A DNA stretch of 19,505 nt. Origin: Verrucomicrobiota bacterium (GTDB lineage Bacteria; Verrucomicrobiota; Verrucomicrobiia; Limisphaerales; CANJXF01). The position numbers and the translations under genes are program-made. Numbering within the stretch: the stretch's first letter is position 1; each line of letters starts with the position of its first letter. The DNA lies in NCBI GenBank assembly GCA_038214755.1, contig JBBQRQ010000095.1:1-19505 (forward strand). Reading direction: 5' to 3'. Of the stretch, positions 7,361 through 19,505 are shown in pieces. The notes beneath the pieces were generated by a model. That model saw nothing but the letters and a program-made list of their open reading frames with translations, was not told where the DNA came from and made no database searches.

Positions 7361-7488
7361 GGTCGGGACGAGTTCCACCTCGTCCTCATTATTTCAGGGA
7401 AATCGAACTCATTGGGATTTTCCTTCTAAAGTTTCCGAGTTGGGAAGGGCTAACGATTAGTCAGGGGCGCGGTTGAAGGCGTCCTTAC
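7361..7488. repeat. REPIN/MITE-like element: two inverted REP-type palindromes about 65 bp apart
   Basis: GGTCGGGACGAGTTCCACCTCGTCC (7361) is an inverted copy of the degenerate GGGGCGCGGTTGAAGGCGTCCTTAC (to 7488); 7415-7488 also matches 12600-12674. Confidence 0.7.
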
Positions 7489-10947: not shown

Positions 10948-12447
10948 TCACGGAACCAACTGGTAACTGACAAACGCCAGCTTCCGGCTGTCGGGCGACC
11001 ACGATGGAACGTTGAGGGTTCCCTGTCCGCCGAAAAGTTTCGCCAGCAAGTCAATCTTTCCATCCGTCAGCGAAAGCAGGCGCAGCATCACATCTTTGTT
11101 TTCAGGATGCCCTTTTACGTCGGGTTCGTAGGAGAGAAACACGAGCGATTTGCCGTCGGGTGATGGGTGCGGAAACCAATTGTTGTAATCATCCTTCGTG
11201 ATTTGTTCCTGCTCCGCGCCGTCGGGTTTCATGCGCCAGACCTGCATCCGCCCCGCGCGATCCGAGTTGAAGTAAATCCACTTCCCGTCCGGCGAATAAT
11301 CCGGTCCATCATCCAGTCCCTTGGCGTCGGTCAGCCTCGTCTCGGTTCCGCCGCCGACCGGAATCGTGTAGATGTCGAACTCGCCGTTACGCTCCGCGCA
11401 ATACGCGAGCGTCTTGCCATCCGGCGACCACCCGTGCCAGTAGGACGGACCCGTTTCCGTGATGAGCTTCGGTGTGCCGCCCGTGATCGGCAGGGTGTAG
11501 ATGCGCGACCGCTGGTTGCCCTGCGATTGATCGCTGATCGCGAGTTGGGTGCCGTCGGGTGAAATGCCGTGATCATTATTGCAGCGAGTGGCAAACGCGG
11601 TGTCGATGACCACGGGTTCGCCGCCTGACAGCGCGATGCGGTAAATCCTCCCTTTGCTGTTGAAGAATAGGTTGGTGCCGTCAGGCAGCCAATTCGGCGC
11701 TTCGATCAAATTCGTGGTCCACCATACGACCCGCCGATCTTTCGACGCCAGTGTGATCGTCTCAAGCGTGCTGATCAGCGAAGGTTTCGGCGCGGCTGGC
11801 ACCGTTCCTTCGTGCAACTCGACGTTTTTGAACACCGCCGTTTCCAGTGCGTCGTCGTTGTGCGCGCAGACACCGAGGCCCACGTAAAACGGATACCTCA
11901 AGTCCAGCCGAAACGACCCGCCTGCCGGGGCCAACGGCGCGCTGCCGGTCGCGATGGACATCGACACATACTTGCCGCGCTTCTCGATGCGCAGGCGCCG
12001 GGGGCCGGCCACGTTCGATTGAATCTCGCGCGTCAACGCTCCCTTCGCCCCGCGATATTGGAGCGAAGTCAAACCATCGCCATGCAATGCGGCATCGGCA
12101 TAGGCGGAATCGGCGTCGAGATCTTGGCGGATGAGCAAACACGCTTTGCGATGCGGATCGCCTCCCGCTCCCTCGAACGCGATGTCCGCTGCGAGGGTCA
12201 CGTCGCTGGAAACTTTCTTCCAAACGAAATGCATCGCGTCGTTCGTGAACCACATGTTCTTCCCGCCTCCGGCGACATCGTAGCTCTGCCCGGCGGAATC
12301 ATAATGGGTAGAACCTCGTTGGGCCGGATCACCGATGTCGGCGTGGCCTTCGAAGAGGCCTCTCGCGTTCGAGTTGGTTTCCGCCGCCATTACGGGCAGC
12401 GCAAGAAAAACGAATGCGATGGAGAGCGATCGTTTCAGTGGATTCAT
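10948..12447 (-). CDS. TolB-like PD40 (WD40-like) repeat protein with an N-terminal beta-sandwich domain
   Basis: Repeated WSPDG/YSPDG/HPSPDG motifs; signal peptide from ATG 12447 ([21 protein letters not shown]); the ORF extends to 12555. Confidence 0.85.
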
Positions 12448-12575
12448 GTCTCCATTGGACGTTGGAACGGGATTTTTGACAATGAGTGAAAATTGATGAC
12501 ATCCGCGAGCGCAAAGGCGATGGGAATCTGGAGAATCCCGCGGAATGCGTTTCACGGTTGCAATGATTCTGCCGA

Positions 12576-12675
12576 GGGAAAACGCATCCCTACGCGTTCG
12601 GATTTTCCTTCTGACATTTTCGGATTTGGGGATGCGCTCAGATTAGTCAGGGACGCGGTGGAACGCGTCCCTACC
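12576..12675. repeat. second, partial copy of the REP/MITE-like element
   Basis: GGATTTTCCTTCT...GATTAGTCAGGGACGCGGTGGAACGCGTCCCTACC matches 7415-7488; hairpin GGGACGCG-gtggaa-CGCGTCCC. Confidence 0.75.
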
Positions 12676-12732
12676 ACGCGCCAGATATCTCGGTAGAGAC
12701 GAGTGTCAATTTTCTTGATGTGACTTCTCACA

Positions 12733-13017
12733 TCACGCTTTGACTAATTCAATTTTAAGATTCTTGCCCAAGGCGCGCGCCACTCGATCCAAGGTCGAAA
12801 GCCGGACATCTTCGGCGTGATTTTCCAGACGCGAGATGGCGGATTTTTTTGTGTTGGTGCGTTGCGCTAAATCTTCCTGCGTAATGCCCGCTTCTTCGCG
12901 GGCTTGTCGCAAGAGGACGCCGACTTTGAATTCCTGATAACCGCTCTCGAAATTTTCCGCGAACTTTGCATCGGCGCGTTTCCTTCGGTTAATGTATTTT
13001 TCCAAATCGTCTTTCAT
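12733..13017 (-). CDS. higA: XRE-family HTH antitoxin (HigA-like)
   Basis: [31 protein letters not shown]...RLSTL; ATGA overlap with the upstream toxin remnant. Confidence 0.85.
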
Positions 13018-13222
13018 CTTTTTGCCTTTCGGTTGAGGTAATCATGTTTTCGCTGTTCGGCAATTTCAATTTCGCGCACGGGCGTTTTCTGCGTCTTCTT
13101 TGCAAATCCGTTCGTCAGATAATAAGGTTTCCTGCATCCCAAAATCCCAGCAACCGAAAAGCATCGCTGCCAAATTCAGCCCGCACTTCCCAAAGTTCGT
13201 CGGGGCCTTCGAGCTTCTTGAA
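13014..13222 (-). pseudogene. higB: HigB/Gp49 (DUF891)-like toxin remnant, 5'-truncated and frameshifted
   Basis: [35 protein letters not shown], then a 1-nt shift near 13117 to [34 protein letters not shown]. Confidence 0.85.
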
Positions 13223-13290
13223 CTCCTCAAAATCCACCAACTTCTTGATCTGCACCAGAAACCAGCGGTCGATTTTCGTGAGGTTGAAAA
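13223..13290 (-). pseudogene. carB: carB fragment, copy 1 (about 68 bp)
   Basis: [22 protein letters not shown], matching the CPS large-subunit oligomerisation-domain motif; 6 mismatches in 65 nt to 16596-16660. Confidence 0.8.
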
Positions 13291-13427
13291 CTACGCCCTC
13301 GTGTGACTGAGATTTTCGCGGGGGGAACACAGTAAAATCGCGCAGGGCTTGACACTCTCCCGCGAAGCGGTTTTTCTGGCGTCAGAGAATTGATGACAAC
13401 CGCCGTGCTGGCATTGGTCCGCCTCCT

Positions 13428-14771
13428 ATGAAAATACTGCTTTCTGCTAACGCCTGCGATCCCTACATGGGTTCGGAAAGTTACTTTGGATGGGCGGCGA
13501 TAAAATGTCTTTCCCAGGATCACGAGATATTTGTCATAACCAGCAGCCGTAATCGCGACAGTCTGGCCAAAGCGAAGGCGGAAGGGTTGGTTCCTCCCAA
13601 TGTTCAATTTTTTTACGCCGGTAAATTCGCTGAGTGGCATCCGAACCGTCTGTTGGCAAGAATCCAAAACTGGAAGGAATACATCCATTTCTCCAAGGAT
13701 TCGCTCGCGGTCTCCATAAGACTGCACCAAGTGGAAAAATTTGATCTCGTTCAGCATGTCACTATTGCGACTTGGCGGGTGGCCTCGCCGCTATGGCAAT
13801 TGGGCATTCCCTTTATTTTTGGCCCCATCGGCGGGAACGAAAAATTTCCGCTTCGAATTTTTCCGGTTTTAAGTCCGGCCGGTGCCGCCTTTGAGCTGTT
13901 ACGGAAGACATCCAATGTTATTTCCAGGTTTTCACCCAGCGTCCGCCGGGGTATTTGCGAGGCCACCCACATTTTCGCGGGCACCACAGAAACGGAACAG
14001 TTGGTGAGAGCTTTGCGCTGTTCCGGCAAAGGTATTTCGCGATTGCTACCGGGATTTTATTCGGCGGCGAAGGTGGCAACCTTGGCCCGCCTGGCCCCGA
14101 ATAAAAAGCTGGACGGGCCGCTCCGTCTCTTTGCCTCGGGCAATCTTGGGGGGCACAAAGGTCTGGGGCTGGCATTGCAAGCCTTGGCCAGTGTAAAAAA
14201 AAGCGGGGTGGATTTTCGCTACCATCTGGGCGCAAGCGGGCCGGAAATCCCGCATTTGAAAAAACTGGTCGCCAGACTGGGCTTGAACCGGGAAGTTCTT
14301 TTTGGCGGAGCCATGAGCAGCGAGGATTATCAGCGGGAATTGGGCAACACCCATGTTTACCTCCTCCCCAGCATGCGGGAAAGCGTCGGCCTGACCATGA
14401 TGGAAGCCATGCTGGCCGGGTGTGTGCCGGTGGTGGCCGACTGCGGCGGGCCAAACTTTATTGTCACGGAGGATTGTGGTTATAAAATTGCCGTTTCCAC
14501 ACCGGAGCGAATGATTGAAGAGATGGCGAATATCATTGTGGCAATTGATCGCGACCGGAAAATCATTTCAGAAAAAGGGGCGGCATCCACCAAAAGAATT
14601 GCCACCCATTTTACAGAGGAAAATTACCGCCAGACCGTCAATGCAGTTTACACATCAGTGACCAACCGCGACAGCGAACTTGAGAGAAACGTTTGCCAGT
14701 CTGCCCCCGTAAAAACGCCAGTCCAAGTGCTTGCTGCCCGCCTCCACCCACGAACCAGCGATTCTCCGTGA
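13428..14771 (+). CDS. glycosyltransferase family 4
   Basis: MKILLSANACDPYMGSE N-terminus; PFIFGPIGG; LPSMRESVGLTMMEAMLAGCVPVV (EX7E). Confidence 0.92.
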   Translation: MKILLSANACDPYMGSESYFGWAAIKCLSQDHEIFVITSSRNRDSLAKAKAEGLVPPNVQFFYAGKFAEWHPNRLLARIQNWKEYIHFSKDSLAVSIRLHQVEKFDLVQHVTIATWRVASPLWQLGIPFIFGPIGGNEKFPLRIFPVLSPAGAAFELLRKTSNVISRFSPSVRRGICEATHIFAGTTETEQLVRALRCSGKGISRLLPGFYSAAKVATLARLAPNKKLDGPLRLFASGNLGGHKGLGLALQALASVKKSGVDFRYHLGASGPEIPHLKKLVARLGLNREVLFGGAMSSEDYQRELGNTHVYLLPSMRESVGLTMMEAMLAGCVPVVADCGGPNFIVTEDCGYKIAVSTPERMIEEMANIIVAIDRDRKIISEKGAASTKRIATHFTEENYRQTVNAVYTSVTNRDSELERNVCQSAPVKTPVQVLAARLHPRTSDSP

Positions 14772-14818
14772 ACTGTGGAGTGCAAAAAAAAACGACTTCC
14801 TATCAATTTAATATTTCA

Positions 14819-15358
14819 ATGAAAAGAATACTTAATGTCGGATGCGGAAAGGAAACTTACGGAACGGACTTTGTCGATATGTATCCTAGTAGAAAGAATG
14901 TGGTCCAATGTGATATGGAAAAAGGACTTCCTTTTGAAAACAACACCTTTGACGAGGTATATAGCCACTGTCTTTTTGAACACCTCAAAAATCCTTTCAA
15001 TATGGTAATGGAAATGAAAAGAGTTACGAAAGAAGGAGGAAAAGTAAGAGTGATAACAGACAACGGAAGTTATTGGGCGTTCGGACGTAACCATGGGGCG
15101 CACACAGGAGGATACGAAAAAGTGGAATATCCCGATGACAGGCACTATTGTTTTTTTACAAAGACACACCTTATAAATCATTTTACAAAAGCAGGGCTTG
15201 ATGTAGAAGAAGTGAAATTTGTAGAATACTTTTCAACATCCTGGATAAAAAGTTCTATCTGTTTTATAGTTCAGAATATCTTAAAGATTACTCCTTTTCG
15301 GAATATGGCCTATGCTAGAATAGAAATCGTAGGGGTTAACAAATATAAAGGGGTCTGA
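14819..15358 (+). CDS. class I SAM-dependent methyltransferase (Methyltransf_11-like), AT-rich
   Basis: MKRILNVGCG, LPFENNTFDEVYSHCLFEHL, KRVTKEGG; likely start ATG 14819. Confidence 0.85.
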   Translation: MKRILNVGCGKETYGTDFVDMYPSRKNVVQCDMEKGLPFENNTFDEVYSHCLFEHLKNPFNMVMEMKRVTKEGGKVRVITDNGSYWAFGRNHGAHTGGYEKVEYPDDRHYCFFTKTHLINHFTKAGLDVEEVKFVEYFSTSWIKSSICFIVQNILKITPFRNMAYARIEIVGVNKYKGV

Positions 15359-15636
15359 ATGGCCATTAGCTAGAGCCTGTCTCCGGGGGAGAAGGGCTTG
15401 TCGTTATTGATGTCGACGGCGGGTTGGTCGTCTGGCAAAAGCGGCGATAGGACAGGCCAAATTTTTCACTCCGGGTAATGGCTGCGGTGCGGCAACTCTT
15501 CACGAGCGACGCGTTTTCCGCACCGTTTGTCGCCGGTTCAATCTTGTGATTGGGTTACAACCGGTTCCGTCAGACGGGCCGTGGGTTTGGGCACGTCAAT
15601 TTAAACGCGTCGTTTCGGGTTTGCCGCGTGTAGATA

Positions 15637-15752
15637 AAAAGAATCACCCGGCATTTTGCGGAAGAAATTACCGTCAGACCATCAATGCAGTTTACCCATC
15701 AGTGACAAACCGCGACGGCCAACTTAAACAATCCATTTACCAATGCGCTTAA
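15637..15752 (+). pseudogene. duplicated 3' segment of the GT4 gene
   Basis: 15665-15725 matches 14621-14681 with 6 mismatches in 61 nt (NYRQTINAVYPSVTNRD vs NYRQTVNAVYTSVTNRD); its stop lies inside the start of the FkbM gene. Confidence 0.8.
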
Positions 15753-16552
15753 ACACCCCCGGAAAACTCAACAGATTTGGCAAGAAGGTGACGCCGTTTC
15801 TCAGTCATCTGGTTGCCAGTGCGCGGGCCACCCGCTTTCTGGAGTTGGGAAGTTCATATCTGAATTGTGTTATTGGTAAAGGCGGGGGAAGCAACTGGCA
15901 CATGGGAGAAGAACTCGCGGCGTCCCAGTTTATCCACCGGGAAAATCCGGTTATTATGGATATCGGAGCAAACAAGGGATGGTGGACCCTTGAACTTCGA
16001 CGTCTGATCGGAGAACGGGGGCGATGGATTTTGGTCGATCCAGCGGCAGAATGCTGCGCCATCTTGCGCAAAATAAGCGGAGTTGAAGTCATTGAGGCGG
16101 CTGTCGGCGAGCACGCAGGGAAGGCCAAATTTTATACTCCGGGAGATGGCAGCGGTTTTGCAAGTCTTCACAAGCGGCACGACTCACATGCGCGTATGGA
16201 GCATTTGATTTTAGAGGAACGCGAAGTCGTGGTGACGACCATTGACGACATTCTGGACAGGCGTGGAATTGAAATTGTTGATATGGCCAAGATGGATTTG
16301 GAGGGTCATGAACTTTTTGCTTTGCGCGGAGCTGCCCAATCGTTGAAAACGCATCGCATTCGTGCGTTGACCTTTGAATTTGGCACGTCGAATGTCGATT
16401 CCAGAACTTTCTTCCGCGATTATTTTGATTTGTTGACAGGATATGGATATAAGATTCAACGAATCTATCCAGGCGGCAAAACTGTGCCGGTATTTGAATA
16501 CTATGAAGATTTGGAGTTCTTCAGAGGCGTTACCAACTATATTGCATTCTAA
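15743..16552 (+). CDS. FkbM family methyltransferase
   Basis: [33 protein letters not shown]. Confidence 0.9.
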
Positions 16553-16595
16553 GTCTAAAGAAGTTCGTCCGAATGGGGCGACCCCTTGGTTCTCC

Positions 16596-16801
16596 TTCAA
16601 AATCCACAAGCTCCTTGATCTGCCCCAGAAACCAGCGGTCAATTTTCGTGAGGTTGAAAATCTCGTCGAGGGTGAAGCCGGCGCGGCGGGCGTGGCGGAT
16701 GAAGAAGATGCGCTCGCCCCGCAGGCGCGGGATCAGTTTGTCCCGCAGAGCGGGATCGCGTGGGAGGATGTCGCGGTCGCTATAAACTTCCGTGCCGATG
16801 C
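16596..16801 (-). pseudogene. carB: carB fragment, copy 2 (about 205 bp)
   Basis: [15 protein letters not shown]...[40 protein letters not shown]. Confidence 0.85.
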
Positions 16802-16881
16802 TAATCATTTATTCTTTTTTTACATTGCCACGTCTTACAGCCTACATCTATCCTTCTCATCAATCCTTATAATCATTATCT

Positions 16882-18708
16882 ATGATAGCTCTTATTCGCG
16901 TCAGATTCAATAACACGCCTGCTGATAAAGTGTGGAGTGATGCAGTGATGCATAACTGGATGAACCCGGGAATACAATATAGCCTGGCACATTTCTGGAC
17001 CCGCACTTCCTTCTTCCAGGCAGATATGCGATACTTTCTTTTCGCCCCGGTTGCAATGGATGATCCGCGACCCAAAACACCAAAAGACTCCACCGAAAGG
17101 CAATATCTCGTTGCTAAAGTAATTGCAGAGGTCACGAAGGCTTTTTCCCCCGACTGGAAGATCTTTGATCAGTTGCTGATATGCTTTGCTCAACCTACCG
17201 ACCAATTTGGAGGAGGTGAACACAAGGTGCCCATTGCTGGTGGTGAAAAAACAATCCCGGCAGCAGTGGTTGATGTTGCAAGCCCGTTCAGCAATATATG
17301 CCAGGAGGTGGGTCATACATTTTTACTTGACCATGAGATTGACGGTGCAGGCAATGAATATATGAGCCCTTACTCATCCATGAGCAGTGAATTATACGGC
17401 GGCGCACAATCCTCTTTTGAGCGTGAAAAAGTTCCTGCGCTGCCCGTAGGTTTTCCACGTCCTGCCCCTGAAATAACTGCAGTGGATACCGATGACATGC
17501 AACGTGTGATAGGTCCTTACATAACACCCGTGCAATTTTACCTGAAAGCAATGGGAATTTTTATTGATGACAGAACTGTCTATCAGGTGCCCGGCTCTTT
17601 TACCACCGCACCTCATTCCTTTCGCCTGGCAGCCCTCGACAAAGGAATTGACTTATGGCCGGCGCGCCATGTAGTACTGGCCGTTCTTCCACCTGCCGTT
17701 CCCAATGGGGATACGTATTTTCTAGAATTGCGCAGGAATGTTAGCTATGATGCGGGGCTAACCTCCGATGGCGCTAACAGTGCTCCTGTAGCCTTGGTGA
17801 TTCATGCTGCTGATATCTCTTCCAAAGCCAAAAGGGTTCGTTATGTTAATCGTGTTGCTTTAGTTGCTTCACCCGGTGATCGTGACTATCATTGTTTTGC
17901 AGGTCATTTCACAGTGCGGCTCAATAATTTTGCAGAAGATTTTTCATCATGCAGTGTCACTGTCGGCGGCGACGATTTTTGGAAATATTTCGGAGTGAAT
18001 TTCGATACCATTCTAACAAATGAAATACCGGGCGGAGAAAGCGAATGGAATTTCGGAAAGGTTTCTCCTTGTTTCATGTTTCCTGTTTCTATTTATACTT
18101 ATAAATATCATTACATCAGCAGCGAGGTAGTGATGGTTGCCTCATCTTTTGGATATGAAACGCCGGCCTACCAATGGTTTTTAAATGACCAGCCTCTTAA
18201 TCCGTCGGATGCACAAATTACCATAAGGTCAAAAGTGAGGGTGCCTCACAACGGTGAATTAAGTGAGCTTCATGATGAAGATGTGACCGTACAATATAGG
18301 ATTACACAAAACAAACTTAACCTGACATTCAATGAACTCTTTTCAGGCATTTATGCCACTGTGAAAGTTATAGTAAATGAAAGCTCCGGTGAAGTTCTCC
18401 AAAATTTTTATCCGGAACGGACAGTATGGACGAGCATTTCAGTAAATAATGTGGAGATCGAATGGGACCAGGCGTATAAAGATGCGCAGAATGCATGTGA
18501 GAAAAGGTTGGATGAAATCAATGATCATTATGCTAAAAGTCACCCGCATATACCCCAACGCAATCCGGAGCCTGACTGGGGTATATCCACCATTAACCTG
18601 ATAAACGAACTTGTACAGTCTAACCCTGCTGCGGCAAATGCAGCCATTAATGAAGTGGCGAGGTTAGGAAATATCAGTAAGCTGGAAGTAATAAAGAAAC
18701 TTCGATAA
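16882..18708 (+). CDS. low-GC metzincin-like (M6/M11-like) metallopeptidase homolog with a QExxHxxxxxH motif
   Basis: 608 aa; ICQEVGHTFLLDH, a Met-turn-like YMSPYSSMS and YFLELRRNVSYDAGL. Confidence 0.6.
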   Translation: MIALIRVRFNNTPADKVWSDAVMHNWMNPGIQYSLAHFWTRTSFFQADMRYFLFAPVAMDDPRPKTPKDSTERQYLVAKVIAEVTKAFSPDWKIFDQLLICFAQPTDQFGGGEHKVPIAGGEKTIPAAVVDVASPFSNICQEVGHTFLLDHEIDGAGNEYMSPYSSMSSELYGGAQSSFEREKVPALPVGFPRPAPEITAVDTDDMQRVIGPYITPVQFYLKAMGIFIDDRTVYQVPGSFTTAPHSFRLAALDKGIDLWPARHVVLAVLPPAVPNGDTYFLELRRNVSYDAGLTSDGANSAPVALVIHAADISSKAKRVRYVNRVALVASPGDRDYHCFAGHFTVRLNNFAEDFSSCSVTVGGDDFWKYFGVNFDTILTNEIPGGESEWNFGKVSPCFMFPVSIYTYKYHYISSEVVMVASSFGYETPAYQWFLNDQPLNPSDAQITIRSKVRVPHNGELSELHDEDVTVQYRITQNKLNLTFNELFSGIYATVKVIVNESSGEVLQNFYPERTVWTSISVNNVEIEWDQAYKDAQNACEKRLDEINDHYAKSHPHIPQRNPEPDWGISTINLINELVQSNPAAANAAINEVARLGNISKLEVIKKLR

Positions 18709-18754
18709 GCATACGGGAAGCTTTTAAAGGGGGCAGGACTGACGCCATATGCGC

Positions 18755-19186
18755 TCCCGCCAGTTTTTCTTCAAAATCCACAATCTCTTTGATCTGAACC
18801 AAGAACCAACGATCAATCTTGAACAGTTGGAAGATTTCCTCAATCGTGAATCCAGCGCGCGGAGGGCATGGCGGATGAAAAAGATGCGTTCGTCCCGCAG
18901 GCGCGGGATCAGTTTGTCCCGCAGAGCGGGATCGCGCGGGAGGATGTCGCGGTCGCCGTAAACTTCGGTGCCGATGCGCCACGGTTTGCCGTCGCCGCCC
19001 AACCCGCTTCGGCCAATCTCCAGCGAGCGCAAACATTTCTGCAAACTTTCCTTGAGCGTGCGGCCAATGGAAAACGAGGCATAGGGCGAGTTGCCCAATG
19101 CCACACGCGAGTCGGATGTGCTGCCCATTCATTCGCGTGTTGAGCGTCGGAGTTGGCTTGCGGAAATTTCTCGAAAAGGAACCGCG
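18755..19186 (-). pseudogene. carB: carB fragment, copy 3 (about 430 bp; two frameshifts and a palindromic insertion)
   Basis: RFLFEKFPQAN/PTLNTRM-[insert]-IGRTLKESLQKCLRSLEIGRSGLGGDG...[45 protein letters not shown]; matches the CarB RFxFEKF...TxMKSVGExMAIGRxFxE and IDxWFL motifs. Confidence 0.9.
19080..19127. repeat. REP-like palindromic insertion inside carB copy 3
   Basis: GGGCGAGTTGCCC hairpin plus ACACGCGAGTCGGATGTGCTGCCCA sits where the conserved KSVGExMA codons should be. Confidence 0.55.
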
Positions 19187-19319
19187 TGCTGAGCAAAGTG
19201 CCGAACGACCGGCAAAAAGGAACTTGTCACCCGGCAGACAGGGGCGGAAAATCATGATGAGCCGAATGGGAAAAGCAATCCTCCGTGCACTGCGGAGCGT
19301 CAGAAAATCAATCTTTTAT

Positions 19320-19505
19320 ATGAAACTCCAAACGAGCCTCCTCGCCGTCTTTGCGGCATTCCAAGGAGCGGCCCTTGCGGCCCCAATCCCGTTGACCGGG
19401 ACCATGACTTACAACCAAAACTTCGATTCTCTCGGCACCGCCAGCGTTCCCTGGGTCGATGATTCCACGCTGCCGGGCTGGCTTGCGGAAATCAACGATG
19501 GGACA
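19320..19505 (+). CDS. N-terminus of a secreted protein (partial; runs off the window)
   Basis: MKLQTSLLAVFAAFQGAALAAPIPLTGTMTYNQNFDSLGTASVPWVDDSTLPGW: signal peptide plus a YxQNFDSL...LPGW motif common in verrucomicrobial surface proteins. Confidence 0.7.
   Translation, partial: MKLQTSLLAVFAAFQGAALAAPIPLTGTMTYNQNFDSLGTASVPWVDDSTLPGWLAEINDGT

Follow-up and report, generated by a model that had tools for sequence, protein, structure and literature searches.

Orphan 3' ends of a split carB gene flank variable cargo at a hotspot without a linked recombinase in Verrucomicrobiota

Three 3' ends of a split carB gene

The window (the whole stretch of 19,505 nucleotides analysed here) contains the three minus-strand carB pieces described in an earlier note on this DNA, and each passes the Pfam cut-off for CPSase_L_D3 (F1, E = 1.3e-10; F2, 3.2e-14; F3, 8.7e-7). 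CarB is split into two genes across the order (probably Limisphaerales); the note had suspected a split near the end of the pieces, and it lies exactly there, since the gene for the N-terminal half (carB-N) stops in relatives at the same motif. The 609-codon C half of carB is on C110 and the 5' part of the N half on C56; the intact carB-N 3' end of this genome is missing from the assembly. Positions within the pieces are counted from the stop of the intact carB-N of a same-genus genome (G007).

18752..19186, minus strand: F1, degenerate carB-N 3' piece, nt -397 to -9 from the stop, frameshifted
19069..19127, minus strand: palindromic insert in F1 at -340, which we take to be REP-like
18893..18932, minus strand: two short hairpins in place of carB codons in F1
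16597..16801, minus strand: F2, carB-N 3' piece, nt -226 to -28
13223..13290, minus strand: F3, carB-N 3' piece, about -90 to -24, fused in frame to the middle of higB

The pieces are thereby confirmed as real carB fragments that represent 3' ends of carB-N, and their shared boundary is therefore the gene's own stop codon rather than a site of recombination, which leaves a special boundary element there unsupported. All three do end near the stop, but their 3' ends lie up to 19 nt apart, with F1 reaching furthest (9 nt short of the stop). The copies are 9-26% divergent and carry private frameshifts and inserts. F1 is a mosaic, its final ~70 nt being 93% like an allele from another family. Inserts occupy the same position (-340) in stubs of G134 and G005, and the hairpin pair of F1 recurs in F2 (about 16717-16756) and in a stub from another family (G100). 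A fourth carB piece (F0) is located just past the window end, within about 1.1 kb of the gene at 19320..19505.

Cargo genes and other repeats in the window

The cargo reported between the pieces (a 608-aa gene; a GT4 gene plus two methyltransferase genes; higB'/higA) is present, together with several shorter repeats.

19320..19505, plus strand: 5' part of a gene with a signal peptide (judged by eye), running off the contig
19274..19307, plus strand: short copy of the GT4 stop region upstream of the following gene (alignment score 37, reached in 0 of 300 shuffles)
16882..18708, plus strand: 608-aa ORF, no Pfam family, GC 0.45, zincin-like QExGH motif
15743..16552, plus strand: FkbM-type methyltransferase (PF05050), start codon uncertain
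15637..15742, plus strand: GT4 3'-region stub, copy of 14592-14698
15449..15513, plus strand: FkbM gene fragment, copy of 16117-16181
14819..15358, plus strand: class I methyltransferase, GC 0.37
13428..14771, plus strand: GT4 glycosyltransferase, its own 3' end also used as an anchor
13014..13222, minus strand: higB/RelE-like toxin gene, 5'-truncated and frameshifted
12733..13017, minus strand: higA-like HTH antitoxin
12597..12674, no strand assigned: dispersed REP-like repeat at the close of the array, with a second copy at 7412-7488

The 608-aa ORF, which has relatives named from several phyla, is indeed low in GC, but its description as peptidase-like is doubtful because the first zinc-ligand position carries Q instead of H in 64 of 68 relatives. 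With its copies in G009, G005 and G006 the higB/higA pair shares 87-89% identity; the intact form of higB in G009 (unpublished) matches Gp49 (PF05973), and in G005 the same higBA is found at a different gene. Several copies of the repeat that closes the array surround carB-N of G007. Only higB'/higA has the orientation of the stubs; GT4, the 608-aa ORF and both methyltransferase genes are encoded on the opposite (plus) strand.

F1 and F2 lie inside a block flanked by GT4-end repeats that is absent from a co-occurring relative, and a depth-8 contig links 14775 directly to 19316; this is the one empty-like form seen, in a comparison set without a conspecific genome. Three serial insertions at carB are therefore not the sole reading of this window.

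A gene-acquisition hotspot behind carB-N

Same-strand carB-N stubs were found at 14 of 59 relatives' loci (10 of 59 under a strict rule), compared with 2 of 807 other genes of the same order, and 48 different downstream neighbourhoods occur behind carB-N among 62 genomes, 19 further carB-N regions at contig breaks having been left out. The neighbours of the stubs are toxin-antitoxin, restriction and other defence-type genes; cargo in relatives includes Mrr, HNH and methylases, and some slots are restriction-modification systems. Reuse of the site for gene capture, as originally proposed, is thus borne out, and the hotspot extends across the order. The 5' ends of the stubs vary from -601 to -51 (from -515 to -56 in a set of 30 stubs) and the 3' ends vary too, contrary to the fixed breakpoints that tandem site-specific integration would leave. 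The 5' ends nevertheless cluster at about -500, -436, -397 and -125, partly with different cargo, and cargo ORFs often stop within 2-30 nt of the next stub, as examples show.

The earlier note had seen no recombinase, and none of the tyrosine or serine type gave a hit in 79 carB-N loci (740 kb; tblastn, with this genome's recombinases as queries for the tyrosine type); C95 likewise showed no tyrosine recombinase, nor did any recombinase lie 3 kb or less from an own-genome stub pair. The cargo does include one integrase-core ORF of IS type (C73) and, in addition, one DDE transposase (G114). A simple pattern for integron attC sites (RYYYAAC...GTTRRRY) gave 0 matches on both strands of 12401-19505 in this window. 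Among the records listed in searches of the open-access literature for carB as an integration site, for split carB and for stub arrays in Verrucomicrobiota, none was relevant.

The same scar at many genes of one genome

A genome-wide scan showed that 55 other genes of this genome are followed by their own 3' stub, and with 20 further unrelated genes the genome holds about 75 such scars. A carB-specific system was accordingly rejected: carB-N is a reusable anchor, as the note had it, but by no means the only one. The local repeats are direct in 255 cases and inverted in 11. The 3' ends of 43 of 54 own-genome stubs fall within -12 to +8 of the stop, the zone where donor homology would end, and the repeats almost never extend past the stop into recipient intergenic DNA (maximum +22). 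More distant stubs are shorter, both in this window and at ilvD.

Stubs and working genes differ mainly at silent sites, which identifies the stubs as displaced alleles. The dN/dS of stub versus parent was 0.12 (50 pairs), 0.16 (19 pairs) and 0.11 (24 carB stubs), values that BLAST detection, favouring conserved stubs, may have lowered; simulation gave 0.43 for a decaying copy and 0.07 for two working alleles. A few stub/parent pairs are 96-100% identical.

When one strict detector was applied, G000 had stubs at 21 of 1889 genes; the counts elsewhere were 2 among 807 other genes from this order and 3 among 474 genes from other orders. These samples are too small to rank orders, and a whole-order excess of scars does not emerge from them. 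The occurrence of scars in other orders implies a background process that is not confined to this one.

A carB-N tract shared across families

In 21 of 98 genomes from other families, a carB-N tract of ~440 nt shows 90-97% identity, whereas identities across families reach at most 83% for carB-C and 85% for recA. Within the tract (-870 to -430), 171 of 1919 cross-family pairs have at least 80% identical codons, compared with 0 of 1919 in the 5' part, and the 5' tree does not group the 28 tract sharers as a single clade (AU p = 3.2e-6). Over all pairs, a fall of synonymous divergence toward the stop was not seen; the signal is a tract in a subset. The longest stubs begin inside this tract. Moreover, one cargo end with its junction is common to G005, G024 and G013 (three families; 91% mean column identity), and a cargo end with its junction is also common to G013 and G134. 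A near-identical carB-N tract across families and one cassette with its junction in three families are new observations. The allele of this genome is 95-97% identical to those of G007 and G009 and 87% to the shared allele; since it is the family allele, the cross-family tract does not explain the genome's own array.

Origin of the arrays

Homology-facilitated illegitimate recombination (HFIR), one of the options raised in the note, fits these observations best, and we assign a probability of roughly 0.6 to homology-anchored uptake that displaces old carB-N ends and then spreads through ordinary recombination. DNA of a relative, probably taken up by transformation, would pair by homologous recombination either with an older stub or with the conserved stretch of carB-N, and would supply the donor form of the gene end together with any small genes behind it. 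Its far end would then be joined illegitimately, that is, to the recipient chromosome without long homology. A join inside the old gene end of the recipient would leave the remainder as a stub behind the cargo, and a join past the stop would leave no stub. In the order of events that we infer, cargo with carB sequence on both sides could subsequently be re-mobilised by two ordinary crossovers, also between families, and such cross-family moves would homogenise the anchor tract. The competence genes ComEC and DprA are present in this genome and are also matched in most control genomes. Several points count against the model. Clustered 5' ends are not predicted by random joining, and the 2-30 nt between cargo ORFs and the next stub are tighter than expected. 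HFIR is described as rarer than normal recombination by orders of magnitude (PMC5361080), and in two transformable species most hotspot gains are reported to lack a recombining flank (PMC12359135).

Insertion with long target duplication, in which the gene end is duplicated de novo, is unlikely, although it has been described, without involvement of a mobile element, for restriction-modification genes whose variable repeats span a start or stop site (PMC2853133). It agrees with the defence-type cargo of relatives (Mrr, HNH, methylases), with the excess of direct over inverted repeats, with the Ku present in the genome and with the few near-identical pairs. However, duplication would not be expected to halt so consistently at the stop, the dN/dS values are far below that of a decaying copy, and much of the cargo lacks a nuclease.

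Less probable still is the joining of DNA at preferred sequences by an HUH/RAYT or other single-strand nuclease acting in trans, with REP-like hairpins marking the stub starts. The genome has 17 Y1/RAYT matches, RAYT-like genes occur at 9 of 79 carB-N loci, REP-like inserts sit at matching stub positions in three genomes, a short hairpin is found four times in 7.6 kb of stubs but not once in 33.8 kb from the corresponding region of intact genes, and the stub 5' ends are clustered. Nevertheless, the hairpins lie within stubs, away from most 5' junctions, six of the nine RAYT loci have no stub, no common motif was found by eye at the listed junctions, and dead DNA gathers such repeats in any case.

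Tandem island integration by a site-specific integrase with attB in carB-N, followed by decay, is largely refuted. Several long stubs start within -515 to -481, stubs shrink with distance, and five tyrosine recombinases are encoded elsewhere in the genome, but starts lie tens to hundreds of bases apart without a fixed core, no recombinase was found in the 79 loci or within 3 kb of the own-genome stub pairs, unrelated genes share the scar and the same cassette occurs at another gene. A fixed att core near -500 was rejected because the starts are not nucleotide-exact and three of those near -505 represent one inherited junction. No viral contig with this allele was found; the one viral locus has only 67% protein identity.

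The region is covered at depth 20-23 by tiling contigs of the probable source run, evidence that depends on the same assembly, and these contigs overlap across F3; among the matches listed, contigs end inside F1 and F2 and no single record bridges either (run X2, covering small conserved parts only, was left out). An assembly or binning artefact at conserved repeats, suggested by these two breaks, by the absent carB-N 3' end and by the many genomes whose contigs break inside carB-N, is scarcely credible against the divergence and private changes of the copies, the even depth, the arrays on long contigs (for example, 2.3 Mb in G135) and the shared tract in assemblies of 4-30 contigs (G050, G133, G116).

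Homology-anchored uptake leads to a further, tentative proposal, which we consider possible rather than probable: the carB-N tract may be an order-wide, self-reinforcing dock for cassettes that have the tract on one side and, on the other, a stub beginning within it, and that enter hosts of about 19 families by plain recombination. Each insertion would overwrite the host tract with the common allele, so that the dock would stay compatible and cassette traffic and tract identity would presumably reinforce each other. If true, this would be an integron-like exchange system for defence genes built from nothing but housekeeping coding sequence, and it would bridge a divergence (some 80% identity outside the tract) that normally shuts down recombination.

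Implications

The scars of this genome provide a countable and datable footprint of recombinase-free gene gain in nature, where HFIR and long target duplication have so far been mostly laboratory or single-locus observations, and the dN/dS of stub versus parent discriminates between the two. The cross-family tract suggests that a hotspot can locally erode the sequence barrier to recombination, and thereby that toxin-antitoxin and defence genes can pass from family to family with no mobile element involved. For the discovery of unknown defence genes, the slot behind carB-N is worth mining; carB-N itself is a poor phylogenetic marker and a source of contig breaks in this order.

Comparison with known systems

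The carB array resembles integrons and CALINs in that its genes are short, often lack promoters, frequently have toxin-antitoxin or defence functions and probably stand with the newest first. It differs from them in that no integrase, no attC pattern and no fixed crossover point were found and that its cargo faces both ways. A displaced piece of a protein-coding gene end downstream of foreign DNA is also left by integrative elements that restore the end of their target gene (for example, e14 at icd, ICE/IME accretion); they have a recombinase and a fixed 5' stub boundary at the att core, neither of which was found for the carB stubs.

Long target duplication (Furuta et al. 2010, PMC2853133; Nobusato 2000 as cited there) is described as leaving small genes of defence type enclosed by direct repeats, long and variable, across a start or stop site, without a mobile element and with proposed re-mobilisation through the repeats. 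The carB inserts are below 20 kb, with direct repeats above 30 bp and no mobile element; restriction-modification cargo is absent from this window and present in some slots of relatives. In contrast to the near-identical repeats tabulated there (for example, 44/46 and 47/47), the carB repeats are diverged alleles, are stacked in arrays, end at the stop and enclose cargo beyond restriction-modification.

Hotspots free of mobile elements that gain genes through recombination in the core genes beside them (Oliveira et al. 2017, PMC5635113) share the high turnover beside a core gene, the lack of an integrase and raised flank recombination. As described, they operate within species or genera by replacement between two flanks, whereas at carB a single flank is enough, new genes add to those already there and homogenisation of the flank extends across families.

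A close parallel is the sequential displacement model via HFIR for T6SS effector-immunity loci (PMC5361080) and the C-terminal displacement of rhs/cdiA (Jackson 2009, Poole 2011, as cited there). In those accounts the incoming DNA is anchored by a conserved upstream stretch, the new module takes the first place, old 3' ends are pushed downstream without an integrase, and arrays later move by homologous recombination. The carB arrays likewise show variable-length, same-strand orphan 3' pieces downstream of a working gene, displaced pieces that are former working alleles, and a mosaic anchor gene. However, their anchor is the housekeeping carB-N instead of a polymorphic toxin with a fused variable tip, the cargo is unfused and bears no relation from one slot to the next, the behaviour extends to many of the genome's genes and exchange reaches across families. 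The carB arrays thus work like rhs/cdi/T6SS arrays but are not members of that class.

The carB-N gene and its shared tract

The main interest lies in a tract of carB-N, the N half of a split carB, that is shared across families, and in travelling cassettes, more than in the three carB pieces of the window. When 63 intact carB-N genes were compared pairwise, codons -275 to -150 (counted, like all positions relative to carB-N below, from the stop codon) were at least 80% identical in 171 of the 1919 cross-family pairs, against none in the 5' part of the gene and 47 in its last 150 codons. Single-linkage clustering of tract sharers joined 28 genomes from 19 families, with a tract extending from about nt -870 to -430 (the top group having been chosen on part of it). 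Queries of 400 nt from G001, a congener of the source genome G000, were run against the same 101 genomes, 98 of them outside its family. The tract matched 21 of the 98 at 90-97% over nearly its full length and G000 at 87%, whereas the best full-length cross-family match was 83% for a control in the C half, carB-C (G000, 90%), and 85% for recA (congeners, 86%). A single clade of the 28 sharers was rejected in the 5'-part tree (AU p = 3.2e-6). G000 itself carries the family allele of the tract, not the shared one. Among 13 named public records, the tract matched at 90% or more in seven and a same-strand stub, that is, a partial copy of the gene end, was present in two.

Stubs were found in 12 of the 28 sharers versus 5 of 35 others, or in 9/24 versus 3/33 once six preselected loci are set aside (Fisher p about 0.02, a significance inflated because kin are not independent). 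The 5' starts of the longest stubs fall within the tract's 3' half. Three genomes of three families (G005, G024 and G013) have the same cargo end with the same junction at -505/-503, and a second cargo end and junction is common to G013 and G134.

carB pieces in the window

The window is the whole of contig C95, from a 5.1-Mb genome in 175 contigs. All three minus-strand pieces placed in it by the earlier note are present; they are listed here with their extent on an intact same-genus carB-N, together with neighbouring genes:

18752-19186, minus strand: F1, nt -397 to -9 from the stop
16597-16801, minus strand: F2, nt -226 to -28
13223-13290, minus strand: F3, about nt -90 to -24
16882-18708, plus strand: 608-aa ORF
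13428-14771, plus strand: glycosyltransferase gene GT4
12733-13222, minus strand: higB'/higA

F1 contains a frameshift and a 59-nt REP-like insert, and in both F1 and F2 carB codons are replaced by two short hairpins. F1 is moreover a mosaic, its 5' parts being about 90-98% like family alleles and its last 70 nt 93% like G027, a member of another family. Both methyltransferases lie on the plus strand with the 608-aa ORF and GT4, and higB'/higA is the only cargo oriented like the stubs. In some stubs (window 18893-18932 and about 16717-16756; loci L073, L057 and L045) a 15-19 nt hairpin stands in place of a few carB bases. It occupies the same two sites in G000 and in G100, from another family, and has 34 copies genome-wide, whereas intact gene ends totalling 33.8 kb contain none. 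The 608-aa protein is without a Pfam match; records of its relatives carry the names Burkholderiales, Chitinophagaceae, Nocardia and Chloroflexi. Because Gln replaces the first His of the zincin-like motif in 64 of 68 family members, the protein may be a metallopeptidase that is variant or inactive. A small toxin-antitoxin-type cluster at 35-2124 (DUF6883/DUF4926, HicB and RelE-like remnants) includes a 76-nt diverged repeat at 487/1780.

Copies of the GT4 end lie at 15637-15742 and, in short form, at 19274-19307. Because 14775 is linked directly to 19316 in a depth-8 contig from the same sample, a relative in the sample has GT4 directly ahead of the secreted-protein gene, without F1, F2 and the genes between. 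A depth-21.5 contig extends beyond the end of the window and reaches another carB piece, which matches from 18974 upwards and stops about where F2 begins. More than one history fits the window: carB-N ends may have been displaced serially, part of another array allele may have been imported by way of the GT4 anchor, or a single long stub may have been split.

Split carB and the common 3' boundary

As had been suggested, carB is split near the fragment ends. Contig C110 carries a 609-codon C-terminal half starting at position 57 of the D3 domain, and C56 carries the N half, which ends with the contig at about where F1 starts; the intact carB-N 3' end is absent from the assembly. Since carB is split and its N half stops 22-34 codons past the DxWF motif in relatives, the 3' boundary common to F1-F3 is the natural stop of carB-N. 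Across the loci examined, stub 5' ends vary from -601 to -51 (clustered near -500, -436, -397 and -125), and many 3' ends are truncated as well.

A frame upstream of carB-C is presumably an IS1595-like transposase. Both halves (L007 on C56, L004 on C110) contain short repeat-derived inserts, in frame and varying from genome to genome. In part of the order, members (G015, G019, G022, G029 and G012) have a full-length carB alongside the split pair, and at L042 (G024:C238) cargo cuts a long carB-N copy about 55 codons short of its normal end, followed by a -505 to 0 piece. Beyond the order, in 150 other genomes of the phylum with at most two carB matches each, carB appears to be whole, because the matches listed almost all sit in frames of more than 1000 codons; no stubs were seen among those matches. 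Two public records titled Bifidobacteriaceae and Hyphomicrobiales (L202, L205) hold a split carB-N protein 97-99% identical to that of G001, the titles probably reflecting depositor labels or binning.

carB-N as a hotspot

From 150 matches listed in a 201-genome search, 60 loci with intact carB-N and downstream room were taken and 59 scored (L096, whose frame ran on, was left out), a sample biased toward relatives of G007 and unbroken contigs. One to four same-strand stubs lay within 6.5 kb in 14 loci (10 by a strict rule). The first 1.5 kb behind carB-N formed 48 clusters in 62 genomes. The cargo includes HigBA-, RelB-, PIN-, HicB- and Phd-type modules; Mrr, HNH, DNA methylases and an AAA ATPase plus RloB; and ORF6N, TIR, Schlafen and SDH protease, with 27 or so of 71 ORFs lacking a family. 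In many examples cargo ORFs start 4-60 nt past the stop and end 2-30 nt ahead of the next stub. The higBA of the window stands directly 3' of intact carB-N in G009 (unpublished, the sole basis). The carB-N locus is a real hotspot. At L072 (G088) a Pycsar-like pair, a cNMP-binding/TIR gene (PF10137, PF00027) and a cyclase-like ORF recognized by eye, starts 7 nt past the carB-N stop.

Gene-end scars across the genome

A self-comparison of G000, based on heuristic gene calls, found 266 local repeat pairs of low copy number (255 direct, 11 inverted), a few of them whole paralogues. A 3' end was repeated downstream in 62 pairs (55 genes) versus 11 the wrong way round, and a 5' start upstream in 22 pairs (20 genes) versus 4; 43 of 54 partial 3' pairs end within -12 to +8 of the stop. 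The scars are therefore not specific to carB. Three stubs at ilvD (512, 122 and 54 nt) become smaller with distance downstream; several stubs each lie at thrS and at a gyrB-like gene. Further multi-stub arrays of G000, with toxin-antitoxin, TIR and unknown cargo, lie at:

C26:15400-26175, at ilvD
C42:18394-28600, at thrS
C15:41400-52380, at the gyrB-like gene
C73:5662-12120, at a peptidase M3 gene (5' end)

In G005, the same higBA as in the window sits in the 5'-stub array of a different gene. One strict detector applied to 20-kb stretches found scars at 21 of 1889 genes in G000; the counts were 2 of 807 for the rest of the order, with carB left out, and 3 of 474 for other orders. A general background process therefore makes gene-end stubs, G000 is rich in them, and the average gene is a far cooler site than carB-N.

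Origin of the arrays

We favour, at a probability of roughly 0.6, a model in which carB-N or an older stub anchors recombination, the far join is illegitimate and the cargo later spreads; homology-facilitated illegitimate recombination was one of the two mechanisms first proposed. The anchored exchange would import cargo together with the gene end of the donor. At its far end the incoming DNA would be joined illegitimately, leaving a stub if the join fell inside the old gene end and none if beyond it. Cargo with flanks on both sides could then spread by double crossover. G000 has ComEC, Ku and two DprA-family matches, all of them common, so that they prove nothing. This model does not explain why stubs with different cargo cluster in their 5' ends, or why the ORFs are packed so tightly.

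Stub and parent differ with a dN/dS of 0.12 at dS 0.42 (50 pairs), 5' pairs with 0.16 (n = 19), and carB stubs and their own intact gene with 0.11 (n = 24); in a simulation, a fresh copy under neutral decay reached 0.43 and a pair of working alleles 0.07. Judged by these ratios, stubs appear to be displaced alleles, although a working gene that exchanged alleles afterwards could produce the same signal, for which reason de novo duplication is only weakened. A de novo long target duplication, at odds with the value simulated for a decaying copy, is unlikely. We regard as improbable a far join made by an HUH/RAYT enzyme, to which 17 Y1 matches in G000 and the hairpins (four in stubs totalling 7.6 kb, none in intact ends totalling 33.8 kb) would point; RAYT-like genes were matched in 9 of 79 carB-N loci. 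No tyrosine or serine recombinase was matched in those loci (740 kb), which agrees with the earlier observation of no visible recombinase, speaks against the integron-like array then proposed and makes a site-specific integrase very improbable. Least credible is an assembly artefact: depth is 20-23 over the region in contigs of the probable source run (the same data as the assembly, hence not independent), and overlapping contigs cross F3, while pieces among those listed end inside F1 and F2.

Comparison with known systems

The literature searched gave nothing relevant on the carB-N locus or its lineage. Integrase-free hotspots with recombining flanks are general according to PMC5635113, though the study in PMC12359135, on two transformable species, found that most hotspot gains lacked recombining flanks. 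As parts of PMC2853133 describe it, insertion with long target duplication often yields repeats spanning a start or stop, and the anatomy at carB-N also falls within that working definition. The anchored displacement model favoured here is the one that PMC5361080 proposes for T6SS immunity arrays and rhs orphans. The carB-N array is real and a hotspot, and it is neither an integron nor specific to carB but works like displacement arrays.
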